NCBI GenBank assembly: GCA_041486265.1
Contig: JBGPLF010000003.1
Location: 1-40,474, forward strand
Direction: 5' to 3'
DNA length: 40,474 bases
DNA from: a bacterium
GTDB taxonomy: Bacteria; Sysuimicrobiota; Sysuimicrobiia; Sysuimicrobiales; Humicultoraceae
Shown here: piece after piece, positions 19,468 to 28,707 of the stretch
How positions within the stretch are numbered: position 1 is the first letter of the stretch
How the letters are laid out: every line of letters starts with the position of its first letter
Made by a program: the position numbers and the translations under genes
The notes under the pieces: generated by a model
Databases searched by the model: none
Seen by the model: the letters and a program-made list of their open reading frames with translations, nothing else
What the model was told of the DNA's origin: nothing

Positions 19468-20652
19468 ATGCGTGACCGGATCCTGCACGGGGTTCGCAGC
19501 CTCTGGGGCAGCGTTGGCGTCGCCATCCTCGTCCTTGTCCTCATCGAAGGTGTGGGTCAGGCGGCCTTGGCCGTACGTGATCGTGGGCTCACCGCTCCGA
19601 GGTGGTTTCCGGAGGATCGCTTTGAGCCCGGCGTCGAGGGTGGCGCCAAGTGGCTCAAGCCATACCTCCGCGAGCTGAGGGTGGCTCTTCGGTACGAGTG
19701 GCATCCCTACGTGTATTGGCGAGCCATGCCCTACCGCGGCACGTACGTCAATATTGATGAGAAGGGAATCCGACGCACGTGGAACAGCCTTTCCTCGTCC
19801 GTGCCGGGTCAACTGAGGATCTGGATGTTTGGCGGTTCCACGTTGTGGGGGCTTGGTTCCCGTGACGAGTTTACTATCGCGTCTCAGGTGTCGAAGAGAC
19901 TCAGCACGCTAGGCATCCACGCGTGGGTGACAAATTTCGGAGAGTCGGGCTACGTCAGCACGCAAGAAGTGATTGCGCTGATGCTTGAGCTTCAGAAGGG
20001 AAATGTTCCCGACATCGTGGTGTTCTACGACGGCGTGAATGATGCGTGGGCAGCGTTTCAAAGCCGTGTTGCGGGAATCCCCGAGAATGAGATGCACCGG
20101 GCGGCCGAATTTAACTCGCGCAGCCGCCTAAACTGGCGAGGGGGGGTCGTCGAAAAACTCGCGCTGTACAGGTTCACCCGGAGTACCCTCGGGTCATTGG
20201 GCAGAGCGCGGTCGAGCGCGGCGATGACAAGCGAGTTTCTGAATCCTGCGCTGGCCAGCGCGGTGGTGGACGCGTACCTAGCCAACGTGCGCACGGTCAG
20301 TGTGCTTGCCCGCGAGCATCGCTTTCAGGCGGTATTCTTCTGGCAGCCCACTGTCTTTTCCAAGAGGAATCTCTCGGAGCGCGAAAAGAGGTGGTATGTG
20401 CACACCGGGCGGGCGGATGTTCGCGACGATGCGCTACCGATCGCGGAGGGATATCGAGTGTTCAATCGGGTTTTCCAGGAAAAGGCGACGACCAGCGGGC
20501 TCACCCAGGTGCATGATCTTTCCGAGGTCTTCTCGGAGGAGTTTAGGACGGTCTTCGTCGATCGGTTTCACATGTCGGATCTGGGTAACGACAGGGTTGC
20601 TGAGGCTATGGTCCAGACGCTGCAAGGGATTGCACGGGACGCACGGAGGTAG
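19468..20652 (+). CDS. Membrane-anchored SGNH/GDSL-fold protein
   Basis: N-terminal transmembrane helix; block I 'FGGSTLWG', block II 'NFGESGY', block III 'YDGVND' and block V 'DRFH'. Confidence 0.82.
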   Translation: MRDRILHGVRSLWGSVGVAILVLVLIEGVGQAALAVRDRGLTAPRWFPEDRFEPGVEGGAKWLKPYLRELRVALRYEWHPYVYWRAMPYRGTYVNIDEKGIRRTWNSLSSSVPGQLRIWMFGGSTLWGLGSRDEFTIASQVSKRLSTLGIHAWVTNFGESGYVSTQEVIALMLELQKGNVPDIVVFYDGVNDAWAAFQSRVAGIPENEMHRAAEFNSRSRLNWRGGVVEKLALYRFTRSTLGSLGRARSSAAMTSEFLNPALASAVVDAYLANVRTVSVLAREHRFQAVFFWQPTVFSKRNLSEREKRWYVHTGRADVRDDALPIAEGYRVFNRVFQEKATTSGLTQVHDLSEVFSEEFRTVFVDRFHMSDLGNDRVAEAMVQTLQGIARDARR

Positions 20653-20705
20653 GCGGGGAGATGAGGAGGGTCCTGGGATGAGACGCTGTTTTGAGGAGGT
20701 ATCAC

Positions 20706-21611
20706 GTGCTCGGTGATACGGTAGGGGCGGAGAACGTGGGTAGTGGCCGTGTGGCCAGCTTTGTCGATGCTGTGACCGGGACGCGAGAAGATGCCACCTT
20801 CATTCGCGCCGGCGGCTCGGAACTATTCTGCGTGGTCCATCGTGGTCCGTCGGCGCCTCGGGGCGGCGTGGTCATCTGTCCTTCGATTTACGCCGAAGAG
20901 CACAAGATGTACGGGACACAGGTTCTGGCTGCCCGCGCCTTCACGGCCGCCGGTTTCGCCGCGGTGCGCTTCCACTATCGGGGCGCGGGGCACAGCGGCG
21001 GGGTGTTCGAAGAGAGCACGGTTGATACGATGCTGGAGGATGTGGCTACGGCGGTCGCCTACTTCAAGGACCAGCAGGACGTACCGTCGCTCGCGTTCTG
21101 CGGGGGCCGATGGGGAGGGCTGATCGCCGGTCTCGCCGCCCGGGATCATCCGGGAGCCCCGCTGGTCCTGTGGGAGCCGGTCATCGACGGCCACGGATAC
21201 TTCAGAGACATCTTCCGGGCGAGCCAGTTGAGCGCGCTGGCCGGGGGCGCAAGCGCCCTCACCGTGGCTCAGGCGGTGGAGCGGCTGCACACGGCGGGCA
21301 TCCTGGATACACTAGGCTATCCGATTCACCGTGGGCTATATGACAGCGCCGGCGGCCGGAGCCTGATGCAAGTGGCCGCGTCGGGAGCTCGGCCCGTCCT
21401 CCTGGTGCAGATCAGCCGCCAGCGAGAGTTGAAGCCCGACTTCAACAGGCTGAAGGACGCCTTTGCAGCCGGTGGGTCATCAATGGAGACGGCGCTGATC
21501 GAAGGTGAGGGCGCGTGGTCGTTCGTCGACAGCCCCATGCCCCTGCCAGGGTCCATTATCGAGGCCTCTGAGAGATGGCTGACGCGCACCGTCAAGGGCC
21601 ACGCGGCGTGA
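20706..21611 (+). CDS. Alpha/beta-hydrolase-fold protein resembling exosortase-locus 'hydrolase 2' (Arg at nucleophile elbow)
   Basis: 'PSIYAEE', 'RFHYRGAGHSGG', elbow 'GGRWGG' and 'LWEPVIDG..Y'. Start at GTG 20706 after GAGGAGGT. Confidence 0.75.
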   Translation: MLGDTVGAENVGSGRVASFVDAVTGTREDATFIRAGGSELFCVVHRGPSAPRGGVVICPSIYAEEHKMYGTQVLAARAFTAAGFAAVRFHYRGAGHSGGVFEESTVDTMLEDVATAVAYFKDQQDVPSLAFCGGRWGGLIAGLAARDHPGAPLVLWEPVIDGHGYFRDIFRASQLSALAGGASALTVAQAVERLHTAGILDTLGYPIHRGLYDSAGGRSLMQVAASGARPVLLVQISRQRELKPDFNRLKDAFAAGGSSMETALIEGEGAWSFVDSPMPLPGSIIEASERWLTRTVKGHAA

Positions 21612-27124: not shown

Positions 27125-27376
27125 GTGACAACGGTCGCGAAGCTGCGTGATTTTGTGCTGAATGAACTGCACTGGGACGAGAGTCGGGGCGCGATCACCC
27201 CGGATTTCCCTTTGATCGAAAACCACGTCGTCGATTCGATGGGCCTGCTCATGCTCGTGTCCTTCGTGGAGGAGCAGTTTGGCATCGCGCTCGCTGACGA
27301 GGAGCTGGTCCCCAACAATTTTGGGACGATCACGTCGATCGCGAAACTGATCGAGCAGAAGAAGTCCGAAGGATAA
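27125..27376 (+). CDS. Acyl/peptidyl carrier protein
   Basis: 83 aa, acidic, with 'VVDSMGLLMLVSFVEEQFGI' carrying the phosphopantetheine serine. AAGGAGG RBS. Confidence 0.9.
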   Translation: MTTVAKLRDFVLNELHWDESRGAITPDFPLIENHVVDSMGLLMLVSFVEEQFGIALADEELVPNNFGTITSIAKLIEQKKSEG

Positions 27377-27396
27377 CGGAACAGGGGTGCGGTTCC

Positions 27397-28707
27397 ATGG
27401 TCATTCCTACACGGTGTGACGTCGTCGTTATCGGCGGCGGTCCGGGCGGTAGCACGACCGGAGCCCTGCTGCGCCAGAAAGGGTACGATGTTGTGCTGCT
27501 TGAGAAAAAGAGGCACCCCCGCTTCAACGTTGGGGAGAGCCTCATCCCTCATTTCTGGCGGTATTGTGATGTCACGGGGTCGACCGCGGCGCTTGAGGCG
27601 GAGGATTTCATCCAGAAGGCTGGGGGGACGGTCATTTGGAACGGCGTGATTCGCCAGATGAGGTTTCAGGATTTCGGGTATGGCCGGTCGGCCCTCCACG
27701 TTGAGCGGGACCGATTCGACCACATCCTGTTGGAACACGCCAGGCGGCAGGGTGTCCAGGTGTTCGAGGACGTCTCGGTGCTGCGGGTGGACCTCGACGA
27801 CGGCCAGAATCGGGTCGCTTACCGCCTGGCCGACGGAAAGACCCCCGGTGAGATCTCCTGCCGGTTCGTTATCGACGCGAGCGGGCAGAACGCCGTCCTC
27901 GCGAAGCAGCTCGGGATCCGCGTGATCGATGAAAGCTTTCGGTTCATGAGCGTCTGGGGATACTTCTTAGATTCGAAGTACGTGTCCACCGACGGAAGAG
28001 CCCACACCTTCGAGCATGTGCGGAGCATCCCTCCCACGACGTTTGTGTCCTCCGTGGGCGGCCTGGGCGAGTGGGGATGGGTGTGGCACATTCCGCTGCG
28101 GGAGAGCACGAGCGTCGGCCTGATCCTTCCCCTCGACGAGATGAAGAAAGTCAAGGCGACCGATGAAGCGCTGGAGGCCTACTTCCTGCGCACGTGCTAC
28201 GAGATCCCGTACCTCGACCGGTTGTTGGAGCACGCGCGATATATCGAGGGGAGTACGCACATTATCCGCGACTACTCTTACCGACCGACGCAGCTGGCCG
28301 GCCCCGGGTTTTTCCTTGTTGGCGATGCGGCCGCGTTCGTCGATCCCATTTTTTCTGTCGGCGCGGTCCTGGCCATGTACTCCGCCTACCTGGCGACATG
28401 GGCGATTGATCGATCGTTCAAGCATCGAGGCCAGATTGCGCAGAATCAGGCCATCTTTTCGAGCCAGTTTCTGGGACGGCTCGAGGTGTCGCGGGCGCTC
28501 GCCCTGCCCCGATATCAGGCGAGCGGGAGTGCCAGCGACCTGGCCAAGCAGGTGGTGCAGTTCGAAAGCTCCCTCGAACAGGAGTTGATGTACGTGGTGG
28601 CGGCCGTCACGACGCGAAGCGAGAACTTCCTGGAGATGGCGCAGAAGACCGACGGGCAGGGCATCACGTCCGACAAGTACCGGGTCCTCGACGAGATCGC
28701 GTTCTGA
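27397..28707 (+). CDS. FAD-dependent halogenase, carrier-protein-substrate type (PltA/Bmp2-like)
   Basis: 'DVVVIGGGPGG', 'HPRFNVGESL', lysine in 'FIQKAGG', halogenase motif 'WVWHIP' (WxWxIP) and 'GDAAAFVDPIFSVG'. Confidence 0.82.
   Translation: MVIPTRCDVVVIGGGPGGSTTGALLRQKGYDVVLLEKKRHPRFNVGESLIPHFWRYCDVTGSTAALEAEDFIQKAGGTVIWNGVIRQMRFQDFGYGRSALHVERDRFDHILLEHARRQGVQVFEDVSVLRVDLDDGQNRVAYRLADGKTPGEISCRFVIDASGQNAVLAKQLGIRVIDESFRFMSVWGYFLDSKYVSTDGRAHTFEHVRSIPPTTFVSSVGGLGEWGWVWHIPLRESTSVGLILPLDEMKKVKATDEALEAYFLRTCYEIPYLDRLLEHARYIEGSTHIIRDYSYRPTQLAGPGFFLVGDAAAFVDPIFSVGAVLAMYSAYLATWAIDRSFKHRGQIAQNQAIFSSQFLGRLEVSRALALPRYQASGSASDLAKQVVQFESSLEQELMYVVAAVTTRSENFLEMAQKTDGQGITSDKYRVLDEIAF

Follow-up and report, generated by a model that had tools for sequence, protein, structure and literature searches.

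To our knowledge, pyrrole-2-carboxyl and halopyrrole units are known only in diffusible natural products. The PltF/PltL/PltE/PltA, RedM/O/W, PigI/G/A and Bmp1-4 sets, the closest described counterparts of the cassette reported here, resemble it in a proline (Pro) adenylation code, a carrier protein, a dehydrogenase of the ACAD family and an adjacent halogenase. A second kind of system is the carrier-dependent decoration of the cell envelope, so far known for D-alanine (Dlt) and glycine (AlmEFG). The Dlt system D-alanylates teichoic acids. AlmE/AlmF/AlmG put glycine from a carrier onto Vibrio lipid A, according to the excerpted text of PMC4278540. In the excerpts available of PMC11218499 and PMC8748450, CloN4/N5/N3 make a pyrrolyl-carrier and CloN7 moves the pyrrolyl group to a deoxysugar. 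In this study, contig JBGPLF010000003.1 of assembly GCA_041486265.1 (40,474 nucleotides, nt; the whole stretch is called the window), from an uncultured bacterium of sediment, was analysed. It encodes an adenylation (A) enzyme, a carrier, a dehydrogenase and a flavin-dependent halogenase inside a Wzx-type glycan operon. We propose that a (chloro)pyrrolyl group is handed from the carrier to an envelope glycan, a reading that we hold to be evenly poised between right and wrong. The recurrence of such cassettes beside envelope-acylating enzymes points towards a mode of cell-surface decoration not described before.

Nearly all genes from about 3960 to 29636 are on the + strand and make up the glycan locus (Table 1). 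The studied run, at 19468-29636 and entirely on the + strand, is the distal end of this operon. It encodes, in order, an SGNH protein, alpha/beta-hydrolase 1 (ABH1), a GT-C-fold glycosyltransferase (GT), ABH2, the dehydrogenase, the A enzyme, the carrier, the halogenase and a UbiA enzyme; the GT-C gene is thus inserted between the two hydrolase genes. Intergenic spacing in the run goes from a 4-nt overlap up to 66 nt: 40 nt between ABH2 and dehydrogenase, a 4-nt overlap of dehydrogenase and A enzyme, 18 nt from A enzyme to carrier, 20 nt from carrier to halogenase and 2 nt from halogenase to UbiA. The synteny of the run is kept in L014, a locus of an Armatimonadota metagenome-assembled genome (MAG), at 62-77% identity. 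An earlier note on this DNA (the original prediction) had described the dehydrogenase, A enzyme, carrier and halogenase genes as one coupled run. Open reading frames (ORFs) with Pfam and NCBIfam scans agreed, placing all four on the + strand near where the note had put them. Its statement that the window lacks ketosynthase (KS), condensation and decarboxylase genes also held, none of these families being found in the 40 window ORFs scanned. Of the flanking genes it named, the two hydrolases and the SGNH protein stood, the latter weakly by Pfam. Its polytopic membrane protein turned out to be the GT-C enzyme, and its lipid-carrier enzyme is a UbiA of the decaprenyl-phosphate phosphoribosyltransferase (DPPR-synthase) type.

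The pocket segment of the A enzyme best matched PDB entries 6o6e (131 bits) and 7thn (97.5 bits), followed by DltA (81 bits). Both 6o6e and 7thn are 'L-proline--[L-prolyl-carrier protein] ligase' entries. With pocket positions assigned by what we take to be the GrsA numbering, the nine-position code is DLLYIALVC in the window, DLLYLALVC in 6o6e and DLFYIAWVC in 7thn, so that eight of nine positions are as in 6o6e; the full code is DLLYIALVCK. Judged from these residues, the pocket is of the PltF type, for proline, in agreement with the proline loading expected by the original prediction. Codes of the D-L/I-x-Y/F type were present in 90 of 97 A domains (at least 190 bits) extracted from 146 related loci. 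The counts were 25 for DLFYLALVCK, 19 for DLLYLALVCK, 19 for DLFYIAWVCK and 4 for DLLYIALVCK, plus variants. The carrier has a DS motif at its phosphopantetheine site, with Ser37, and reached at most 48.6 bits with the NCBIfam acyl carrier protein (ACP) models, all below cut-off. The dehydrogenase scored 459.7 bits with the NCBIfam model of PigA (cut-off 500) and 429.5 bits with that of RedW (cut-off 650), and the next model, a generic ACAD, gave 336.9 bits. Among solved structures, prolyl-ACP dehydrogenase 4irn, which we take to be AnaB, gave 431.5 bits and PigA 5zw0 gave 333 bits. Since prolyl-carrier dehydrogenase models and structures outscore generic ACADs, oxidation of the prolyl-carrier is supported at the level of homology. 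Full oxidation to pyrrole would be a further step, and a two-electron reaction cannot be told from a four-electron one by sequence.

To see the cassette in other genomes, 80 loci with relatives of the dehydrogenase were fetched, one genome per species. Clustered at 75% identity, they fall into 37 groups, and they come from ten phyla or more. Context was counted from all six-frame ORFs with phmmer and hmmsearch, because simpler ORF callers mis-called high-GC genes. In 58 of the 80 loci, the dehydrogenase and a Pro-type A enzyme lie within 5 kb of each other, and 35 of these 58 have an adjacent stand-alone transferase candidate. Three types of partner were distinguished. The first is an ABH pair (11/58). 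The second is a hexapeptide acyltransferase ending just before the dehydrogenase (14/58); this assignment was made by Pfam, positive in seven of eight picked examples, and then by a hidden Markov model, and one example exceeded the cut-off of the NeuD/PglB/VioB sugar-acetyltransferase family (177.2 vs 160.8). The third is a polytopic DltB-like MBOAT with a membrane-anchored SGNH protein, split or fused (12/58). The polytopic protein matched DltB weakly (22.2 bits). Its structure model (pLDDT 81.4) had as best matches 6bug and DltB 8jem, at TM 0.59-0.62, followed by other MBOATs; the query-normalised TM of three DltB rows was 0.51-0.60. In two Myxococcota loci (L062:9907-12588 and L072:462-3092), a frame of about 880 amino acids (aa) fuses the dehydrogenase to a DltB-like MBOAT.

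Signs of a polyketide synthase (PKS) or nonribosomal peptide synthetase (NRPS) were seen in 10 of the 58 loci (KS in 4, extra non-Pro A domains in 6), and together with a transferase candidate in 3. The motif HHxxxDG was present in one of five large NRPS-like ORFs. L049 and L052 have the classical order, with a halogenase and a KS-bearing megasynthase. Glycan genes of the window type were found in 22 of the 58 loci. A baseline from one genome is given by the genome that holds the window, where 12 of 315 stretches of 21 kb had such genes. Within 7 kb of the dehydrogenase, the 80 loci hold 586 ORFs, mostly singletons in blastp clustering. Out of a set of 217 ORFs from 28 loci, 134 ORFs of 16 representative loci were used for a family list, a selection that leaves out L014, seven loci of the PKS/NRPS type and four loci without an A enzyme. 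Their commonest families were Glycos_transf_1 (8), Phosphodiest (6), Hexapep (4), GNAT (4) and GT2 (3), and neither Condensation nor ketoacyl-synt was among the 25 families listed for these 134 ORFs. Some Pfam and NCBIfam scans of partner genes took in hand-picked ORFs beside the cassette; such picked neighbours included Bac_transf, GT2, GT4, Wzz, ABC-2 and sulfotransferase proteins. The survey proposed by the original prediction thus came out in its favour, with homologous cassettes recurrently linked to genes for glycans and envelope acylation rather than to genes of the PKS/NRPS kind.

A quick maximum-likelihood tree of the dehydrogenases, with SH-aLRT support only and 78 of 81 rows (rows below 330 aa were dropped), grouped the window with L013 and L014 (SH-aLRT 99), next to an Actinomycetota group (90). 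Five ABH-bearing Actinomycetota loci formed a nested clade (98), and the partner types were clustered. L013 (2448-10000), the other close relative from the Armatimonadota, encodes Wzz, a Wzc-like ATPase, a G8/beta-helix protein and an ABC-2 (Wzm/Wzt-like) transporter ahead of the dehydrogenase and A enzyme. There is no ABH pair upstream in L013; downstream, the contig ends 367 nt past the A-enzyme gene, too soon to judge the presence of an ABH pair or of a halogenase.

Among flavin monooxygenases, halogenases are marked by a lysine and the motif WxWxIP. The halogenase of the window has all its motifs: GGGPGG at 13 (GxGxxG), Lys74, aligned with the lysine of CmlS and CndH, and WVWHIP at 228 (WxWxIP). 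Its scores against PDB entries were 166.7 bits for CmlS, 153.8 for CndH (3e1t), 134.1 for 5buk, 126.9 for PltA and 105.8 for 5bul. Relatives were gathered from 66 metagenome loci at 39-77% identity. A carrier gene lies within 700 nt of the halogenase in 45 of the 49 relative loci with enough sequence, and 20 of 25 loci have a Pro-type A domain on the upstream side. Because of these two counts, the clade is, as read from its neighbours, one acting on carrier-bound substrates and tied mostly but not solely to proline. A dehydrogenase was present in 7 of the 17 halogenase-relative loci with 5 kb upstream. The nearest relative (L093, 77%) is followed by an MFS transporter. In L148, a Wzx gene (480 bits to that of the window) lies between carrier and halogenase. 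L094:1-5588 has a halogenase 67% identical to that of the window, a chorismate-pyruvate-lyase-like gene, a PaaK-like gene, a carrier and an ABH1 homologue (172 bits), perhaps the same kind of hand-over with 4-hydroxybenzoyl as the group.

These data bear on how far proline is oxidised. The dehydrogenase could stop after one two-electron step as AnaB does, in which case pyrroline-5-carboxyl would be transferred and the halogenase-like flavoprotein would be otherwise engaged. The score of 4irn (431.5 bits) over that of PigA (333 bits) fits such a stop, as does the occurrence of halogenase-clade members without a nearby dehydrogenase. Of the 58 related loci, only 7 contain any halogenase, which places halogenation outside the core system. 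According to the excerpted text of PMC3252866, the product of AnaB is (S)-pyrroline-5-carboxyl-AnaD and not a pyrrole. On the other side, the PigA and RedW profiles reach 459.7 and 429.5 bits, the halogenase keeps its lysine and WxWxIP, and its gene directly follows the carrier gene, just as a carrier gene is near in 45 of 49 relatives. As the halogenase directly follows the carrier gene, a carrier-bound aromatic substrate is the simplest assumption, and we consider a stop at the pyrroline highly improbable. The AnaC/AnaD/AnaB system is like the window in its stand-alone A enzyme and carrier and provides the best solved relative of the dehydrogenase. It differs in that its pyrroline feeds a PKS, whereas the window has no PKS and does have a halogenase.

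The best named matches of the two hydrolases were exosortase A-associated hydrolase 2 for ABH1 and hydrolase 1 for ABH2. At the nucleophile elbow, ABH2 reads GRCFG (Cys136) and ABH1 reads GGRWGG, with an arginine. All 10 homologues of the ABH2 type have a cysteine at the elbow (GxCxG), and all 13 of the ABH1 type have arginine or leucine. For alignment, 9 of the 10 Cys-type sequences (a truncated one was dropped) and 12 of the 13 Arg/Leu-type sequences (L038 was dropped for its long upstream extension) were used. These signatures span Armatimonadota (L014), Terriglobia, Actinomycetota and L053, beside the same cassette. Bona fide TIGR03100 proteins gave 16 matches in 201 genomes, and 12 loci (L168-L179) were examined. 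One unpublished genome is counted in this tally, but none of the 12 loci comes from it. The elbow of these proteins is GLCDA with cysteine in 12/12, and their upstream partners have arginine (GLRxG) in 12/12. Profiles of the window families matched the bona fide pairs at E 1e-25 to 1e-44 for ABH1 and E 1e-26 to 1e-36 for ABH2. The shared Cys/Arg signature and profile matches make the window pair, by homology, a divergent member of the uncharacterised exosortase-A-associated pair. We did not find an earlier description of the Cys/Arg elbow signature of that pair. The (D/N)HTF His and the Asp are kept in Terriglobia, in L053 and in 12/12 exosortase-type proteins. In the window ABH2 both are missing, so a classical Cys-His-Asp triad is not evident there.

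ABH1 is predicted to bind ABH2. In complex modelling, all three runs reached an ipSAE of 0.89, and the controls gave 0.13, 0.00 and 0.00; partner pLDDT was 75 or higher, and the runs had at least 56% of their contacts in common. Of 80 solved complexes, 58 came up to the ipSAE mark, as did 2 of 110 mismatched pairs, counts that are only a rough calibration because our own alignments were used. Capsule O-acetyltransferases of the alpha/beta-hydrolase fold are described in the excerpted text of PMC7387560. The likeness of ABH1/ABH2 to CloN7/CouN7 is known from the alpha/beta-hydrolase fold alone (Pfam). To the extent of the CloN excerpts, that system is alike in that a carrier-made, proline-derived pyrrolyl group is moved to a sugar hydroxyl by a dedicated acyltransferase; it differs in having a small-molecule acceptor and a second carrier (CloN1), where the window has one carrier, a Cys/Arg pair and a polymer operon. 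The exosortase-A set (TIGR03100, TIGR03101, the AMP-forming ligase TIGR03098 and a carrier) consists of 'hypothetical equivalogs'. Two adjacent hydrolases in the same order are present there too, with an adenylating enzyme and a carrier next to them and exopolysaccharide systems as the context. It differs from the window, which scores 30.9/168, 81.8/203 and 339/592 (all under the cut-offs), adds a dehydrogenase and a halogenase, has no PLP decarboxylase and no HTF His, and has its pair split by the GT-C gene. The one exosortase of the window's genome (EpsH family, 226.7 bits) is on another contig (C63:13023-13763).

The steps can be arranged as follows. The A enzyme would load L-proline onto the small carrier, the ACAD-family dehydrogenase would oxidise the prolyl-S-carrier, and the flavin halogenase would act on the carrier-bound product, three steps for which the homologies above speak. 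Oxidation would run fully to pyrrole-2-carboxyl, the only electron-rich substrate that suits such a halogenase, and the acyl group is then most likely chlorinated. We infer that it moves as a thioester to Cys136 of ABH2, which would work as a heterodimer with the nucleophile-less ABH1. It would end on an amino or hydroxyl group of a repeat-unit sugar or of a nucleotide- or lipid-linked precursor. The PglF/DegT-like genes predict a 4-amino-4,6-dideoxy-hexose, which is a good candidate acceptor. Its nitrogen is attractive, since a PglD-like hexapeptide acyltransferase gave 0 matches at E<=10 in the window and other lineages put a PglD/NeuD-type protein before the dehydrogenase. For this 4-amino sugar, the expected product of the PglC/PglE/PglF-like trio (3963-7790), no acyl donor is obvious. 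The GT-C enzyme and the DPPR-synthase-type UbiA would add a polyprenyl-phosphate-borne pentose to the same glycan.

A rival explanation is that the cassette makes a free or small-molecule halopyrrole and that its position in a glycan operon is incidental. Chloropyrrole-2-carboxylic acid might be released by the hydrolases acting as thioesterases, or a PKS/NRPS product might be made by a consumer lying in the unassembled fifth of the genome. Alpha/beta-hydrolases beside carrier proteins are often editing thioesterases, and L049, L052 and the MFS transporter of L093 fit a free product. The genome is 79.8% complete. The characterised dehydrogenase/A/carrier/halogenase sets, by the list in the original prediction and the excerpted text of PMC11218499, all feed small molecules. 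Against this stands the search of the assembled genome. The six-frame search of the whole bin gave 0 Condensation matches, and KS matches were limited to three open frames of 416-546 aa and one 24.7-bit fragment, the frames being FabF/B-sized and all matches lying on contigs other than that of the window. This result does not prove absence because the bin is incomplete. Moreover, the cassette is interspersed with glycan genes, with the spacing of an operon, and L014 keeps this arrangement. The hydrolase pair has Cys/Arg in place of Ser, and the pair to which it is homologous occurs solely with exopolysaccharide systems. In related loci, three other envelope-acyltransferase types replace it. 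We therefore consider a free product unlikely. Compared with the Plt, Red, Pig and Bmp sets, the window differs in having no KS or condensation partner in window or genome, in the position of its cassette in a Wzx operon, in a dehydrogenase below the PigA and RedW cut-offs and in a halogenase nearer CmlS/CndH than PltA.

The acyl group could also be made as we propose and be placed on another acceptor, such as a membrane lipid, a polyprenyl-phosphate sugar, or a secreted or exosortase-sorted protein. Among halogenase-clade members at about 50% identity, a gene of the LpxL family (lipid A / PIM acyltransferase-like) follows the halogenase in 15 of the 27 loci with downstream sequence. The gene of the DPPR-synthase type stands 2 nt after the halogenase of the window. 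Relatives of the hydrolases are tied to exosortase A systems, the substrates of which are proteins, and the genome has one exosortase. For a lipid, AlmEFG is a precedent of a carrier-borne group placed on lipid A (excerpt of PMC4278540). However, a search of the window's genome for LpxL-like relatives of the L122 protein found none, the exosortase is encoded on a different contig, and the partners of PglD/NeuD and DltB/SGNH type seen elsewhere acylate sugars or glycopolymers. A lipid or protein acceptor thus appears quite improbable to us, and transfer to the glycan remains the preferred reading. By the same excerpt, AlmEFG is alike in that an envelope glycolipid is decorated through a ligase, a carrier and a transferase of the LpxL family, a gene of that family also following the halogenase in 15/27 relatives; it differs from the window, the genome of which has no such LpxL-like gene, and in the group transferred. 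In eight loci (L110, L112, L113, L116, L117, L120, L122 and L123), a Pro-code A enzyme, a carrier, a halogenase and an LpxL-like gene occur together. The same eight have no dehydrogenase within 5-8 kb upstream.

Several observations weigh against a hand-over of halopyrrole to the glycan. Every transfer step, as well as the product and the acceptor, is read from gene context. The dehydrogenase is under both equivalog cut-offs (PigA and RedW), and its closest structure is 4irn, not PigA. CmlS and CndH outscore the pyrrolyl-carrier halogenases 5buk, PltA and 5bul. Ten of the 17 halogenase-relative loci with 5 kb upstream have no dehydrogenase, and the 67%-identical halogenase of L094 sits without a Pro A enzyme among chorismate-lyase-like and PaaK-like genes. 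The halogenase clade is linked to ABH or Wzx genes only in the window, in L014 and in the short contigs L094 and L148. Both hydrolases are far below the TIGR03101 and TIGR03100 cut-offs, and in ABH2 of the window and of L014 the His site reads NNLT and no Asp aligns with that of the triad. In the survey, 16 of the 58 loci have neither a transferase candidate nor PKS/NRPS signs, and NRPS detection in the related loci rests on extra non-Pro A domains only. With a bin of 344 contigs and 79.8% completeness, a PKS/NRPS consumer could be unassembled. The halopyrrole-glycan transfer of the original prediction has thus kept the proline pocket and the glycan linkage. It was altered in a dehydrogenase nearer AnaB and in hydrolases that are an exosortase-type pair with Cys/Arg for Ser, and the transfer itself is seen through context.

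A broader proposal, which we put forward tentatively and rate somewhat short of even, joins all these loci. Many phyla would use a proline-to-pyrrole carrier module for acylating envelope glycans or glycolipids and not for antibiotics. In the Armatimonadota lineage of the window the group would be halogenated beforehand, so that the cell-surface polymer would bear organohalogen. These phyla would be Armatimonadota, Acidobacteriota, Actinomycetota, Gemmatimonadota, Eisenbacteria, Myxococcota and some Pseudomonadota. Four interchangeable machines would serve the transfer, namely the Cys/Arg hydrolase heterodimer, the PglD/NeuD-type hexapeptide enzyme, the DltB/DltD-like MBOAT-SGNH pair and the LpxL-like enzyme. 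The Dlt system (DltA/B/C/D) is alike in the logic of an adenylating enzyme, a small carrier and an envelope polymer, and 12 of the 58 related loci have a DltB-like MBOAT with SGNH. It differs in that the acyl group here would be oxidised proline, not D-alanine, and the window itself has no MBOAT.

Within the literature searched, no report was found of a pyrrole-2-carboxyl or pyrrolyl group in the context of a bacterial polysaccharide, O-antigen or flippase, and none on the exosortase-associated ligase/ACP/hydrolase set. Both building blocks, pyrrole cassettes and carrier-dependent envelope decoration, are of known kinds. Their union, the Cys/Arg hydrolase pair as a hand-over device and the breadth across phyla are new. 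If the proposal is true, surface glycans carrying pyrrolyl or chloropyrrolyl would add a new kind of chemistry to glycans. Such substituents would make the surface aromatic, ultraviolet-absorbing and hydrophobic, possibly antimicrobial or phage-blocking, and they would represent a new natural origin of organohalogen bound to polymers in soils and sediments. The exosortase-A hydrolase pair could, as a hypothesis, be a Cys-acyl relay with a pseudo-enzyme partner, and if the broader proposal is true, the long-unexplained set of exosortase-A hydrolases 1 and 2, ligase and carrier would gain a function. For genome mining, dehydrogenase/A/carrier trios alone would not be markers of pyrrole antibiotics. 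Cultured carriers of the non-halogenating cassette are Mesorhizobium prunaredense (L076) and Steroidobacter flavus CGMCC 1.10759 (L074).

The remaining genes of the run were assigned as follows. The SGNH call is backed by a Ser motif at 121, DxxH at 365 and a hydrophobic segment at residues 18-36, and its one PDB match was CgnD 8a2n (E 6e-9). This membrane-anchored protein may act outside the membrane. The DUF6798 protein was modelled with AF2 using 56 of 62 homologues (pLDDT 90.2, pTM 0.90). The best 25 Foldseek matches listed in the PDB were all GT-C enzymes at TM 0.31-0.49, including OST/STT3, PglB, DPY19, ALG12, AftA, ArnT, AftD and EmbB, so that by its model the protein is a GT-C-fold glycosyltransferase. 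In L014, the DUF6798 gene directly follows the UbiA gene. Given the GT-C fold, the DPPR models passed and this adjacency, GT-C and UbiA are best read as a polyprenyl-phosphate-pentose glycosylation branch and not as acyl transfer.

A Dlt-like relay in the window itself was also considered and rejected, since its polytopic protein is a GT-C enzyme and none of three proteins resembles its counterpart in L063. The GT-C protein had an hhalign probability of 0.3% with the DltB-like protein of L063, the 8929..10296 protein was unrelated to that MBOAT, and the match between the two SGNH proteins (E 0.023) was not significant.

Upstream of the run, an initiating transferase, a Wzx flippase and glycosyltransferases (GT4 twice) on one strand give the locus the features of a Wzx/Wzy-dependent system, with Wzy as a candidate only. 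An FkbM methyltransferase is also encoded in the glycan locus. The 8929..10296 protein had no Pfam or NCBIfam match. The gene after UbiA (29877-31193), the last of the run, is on the opposite strand and convergent. Between 15000 and 31500, 11 terminator-like sites were counted against 9.8 +/- 3.1 in shuffles, which is chance level, and promoter-like sites numbered 1 against 2.2 expected; both counts are uninformative. An Rfam scan of the window gave no family match.

Table 1. Genes of the glycan locus and of the studied run in the window, with sequence evidence.
Feature	Coordinates	Strand	Evidence
GT4 gene, first in window	570-1754		
Initiating sugar-phosphate transferase, PglC-like size	3963..4691	+	Pfam PF02397 Bac_transf 171.6 bits
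DegT/PglE-type sugar aminotransferase	4637..5872	+	Pfam PF01041 356.1 bits
PglF-like membrane-bound NDP-sugar 4,6-dehydratase	5859..7790	+	Pfam Polysacc_synt_2 333.4 bits, CoA_binding_3
Polytopic membrane protein, candidate Wzy polymerase	8929..10296	+	about 10 hydrophobic segments
Wzx-type MOP flippase	10316..11806	+	Pfam Polysacc_synt_3 260.6 bits; NCBIfam MOP flippase 242.8, below cut-off 273
GT4 glycosyltransferase	11736..13013	+	Pfam Glycos_transf_1 123.4 bits
Polysaccharide deacetylase	12758..14086	+	Pfam PF01522 77.8 bits
Acetyltransf_6 (FemAB-like GNAT) protein	14083..15300	+	Pfam PF13480 119.1 bits; L014 orthologue 461 bits
539-aa protein without Pfam family	17825..19444	+	L014 orthologue 745 bits, directly before ABH1
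Membrane-anchored SGNH/GDSL-like protein	19468..20652	+	Pfam Lipase_GDSL_2 24.5 bits, below cut-off 32.9
Alpha/beta-hydrolase 1 (ABH1), nucleophile-less paralogue	20691..21611	+	TIGR03101 81.8 bits, below cut-off 202.75
GT-C-fold glycosyltransferase (DUF6798)	21575..23302	+	Pfam DUF6798 43.4 bits
Alpha/beta-hydrolase 2 (ABH2), Cys136 at elbow	23369..24328	+	TIGR03100 30.9 bits, below cut-off 168.45
Probable prolyl-carrier-protein dehydrogenase, ACAD family	24369..25514	+	three ACAD domains
Stand-alone A enzyme, predicted for L-proline	25511..27106	+	TIGR01733 422.4 bits, above cut-off 317.4
Carrier protein (peptidyl carrier protein/ACP), 83 aa	27125..27376	+	Pfam PP-binding 19.6 bits, just below cut-off 20.8
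Flavin-dependent halogenase, carrier-substrate type	27397..28707	+	Pfam Trp_halogenase 95.3 bits, above 21
UbiA, decaprenyl-phosphate phosphoribosyltransferase-type	28710..29636	+	NF008977 243.7, above 234; NF008978 230, above 207

The 17825..19444 protein had an ESM Atlas feature score of 0.99 to a cluster auto-named 'Coenzyme F390 synthetase', and its PDB match to phenylacetate-CoA ligase reached E 0.11 only. As a lead from these models, it could be a CapK / F390-synthetase / PaaK-like adenylate-forming enzyme. It might then be a second enzyme that loads the carrier, or might activate a sugar carboxylate.

The window is one whole contig of a 3.89-Mb genome bin, the nearest relatives of which were Armatimonadota MAGs in the search with one genome per species. 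Among the sequencing runs listed, the DNA of the window was present in four sediment metagenome runs, and no RNA run had its sequence.

Sulfation may accompany the modification. Genes for making 3'-phosphoadenosine 5'-phosphosulfate (ATP sulfurylase and adenosine 5'-phosphosulfate (APS) kinase) lie at 33488-35228, 4 kb downstream of the operon. In L023, a sulfotransferase gene (11143-12123) directly follows the dehydrogenase, and in L156 an APS-kinase-bearing protein (about 11249-13426) directly follows the halogenase. Further downstream in the window, a 763-aa frame at 36065-38356 on the - strand, antisense to dnaK, matched Pfam 'NAD-GH' with 492 bits and was rejected as a gene, being a shadow-ORF artefact. 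The true genes around it are a MerR-family regulator, dnaK, grpE, dnaJ and clpB. At the other end, window 2316-3928 encodes an ABC ATPase and a BPD_transp_1 permease. Their homologues (105-186 bits) lie right after the halogenase in L096, L103, L110, L122, L127, L135 and L147, and in those metagenome loci they accompany an NMT1-like binding protein and SCO1/SenC.

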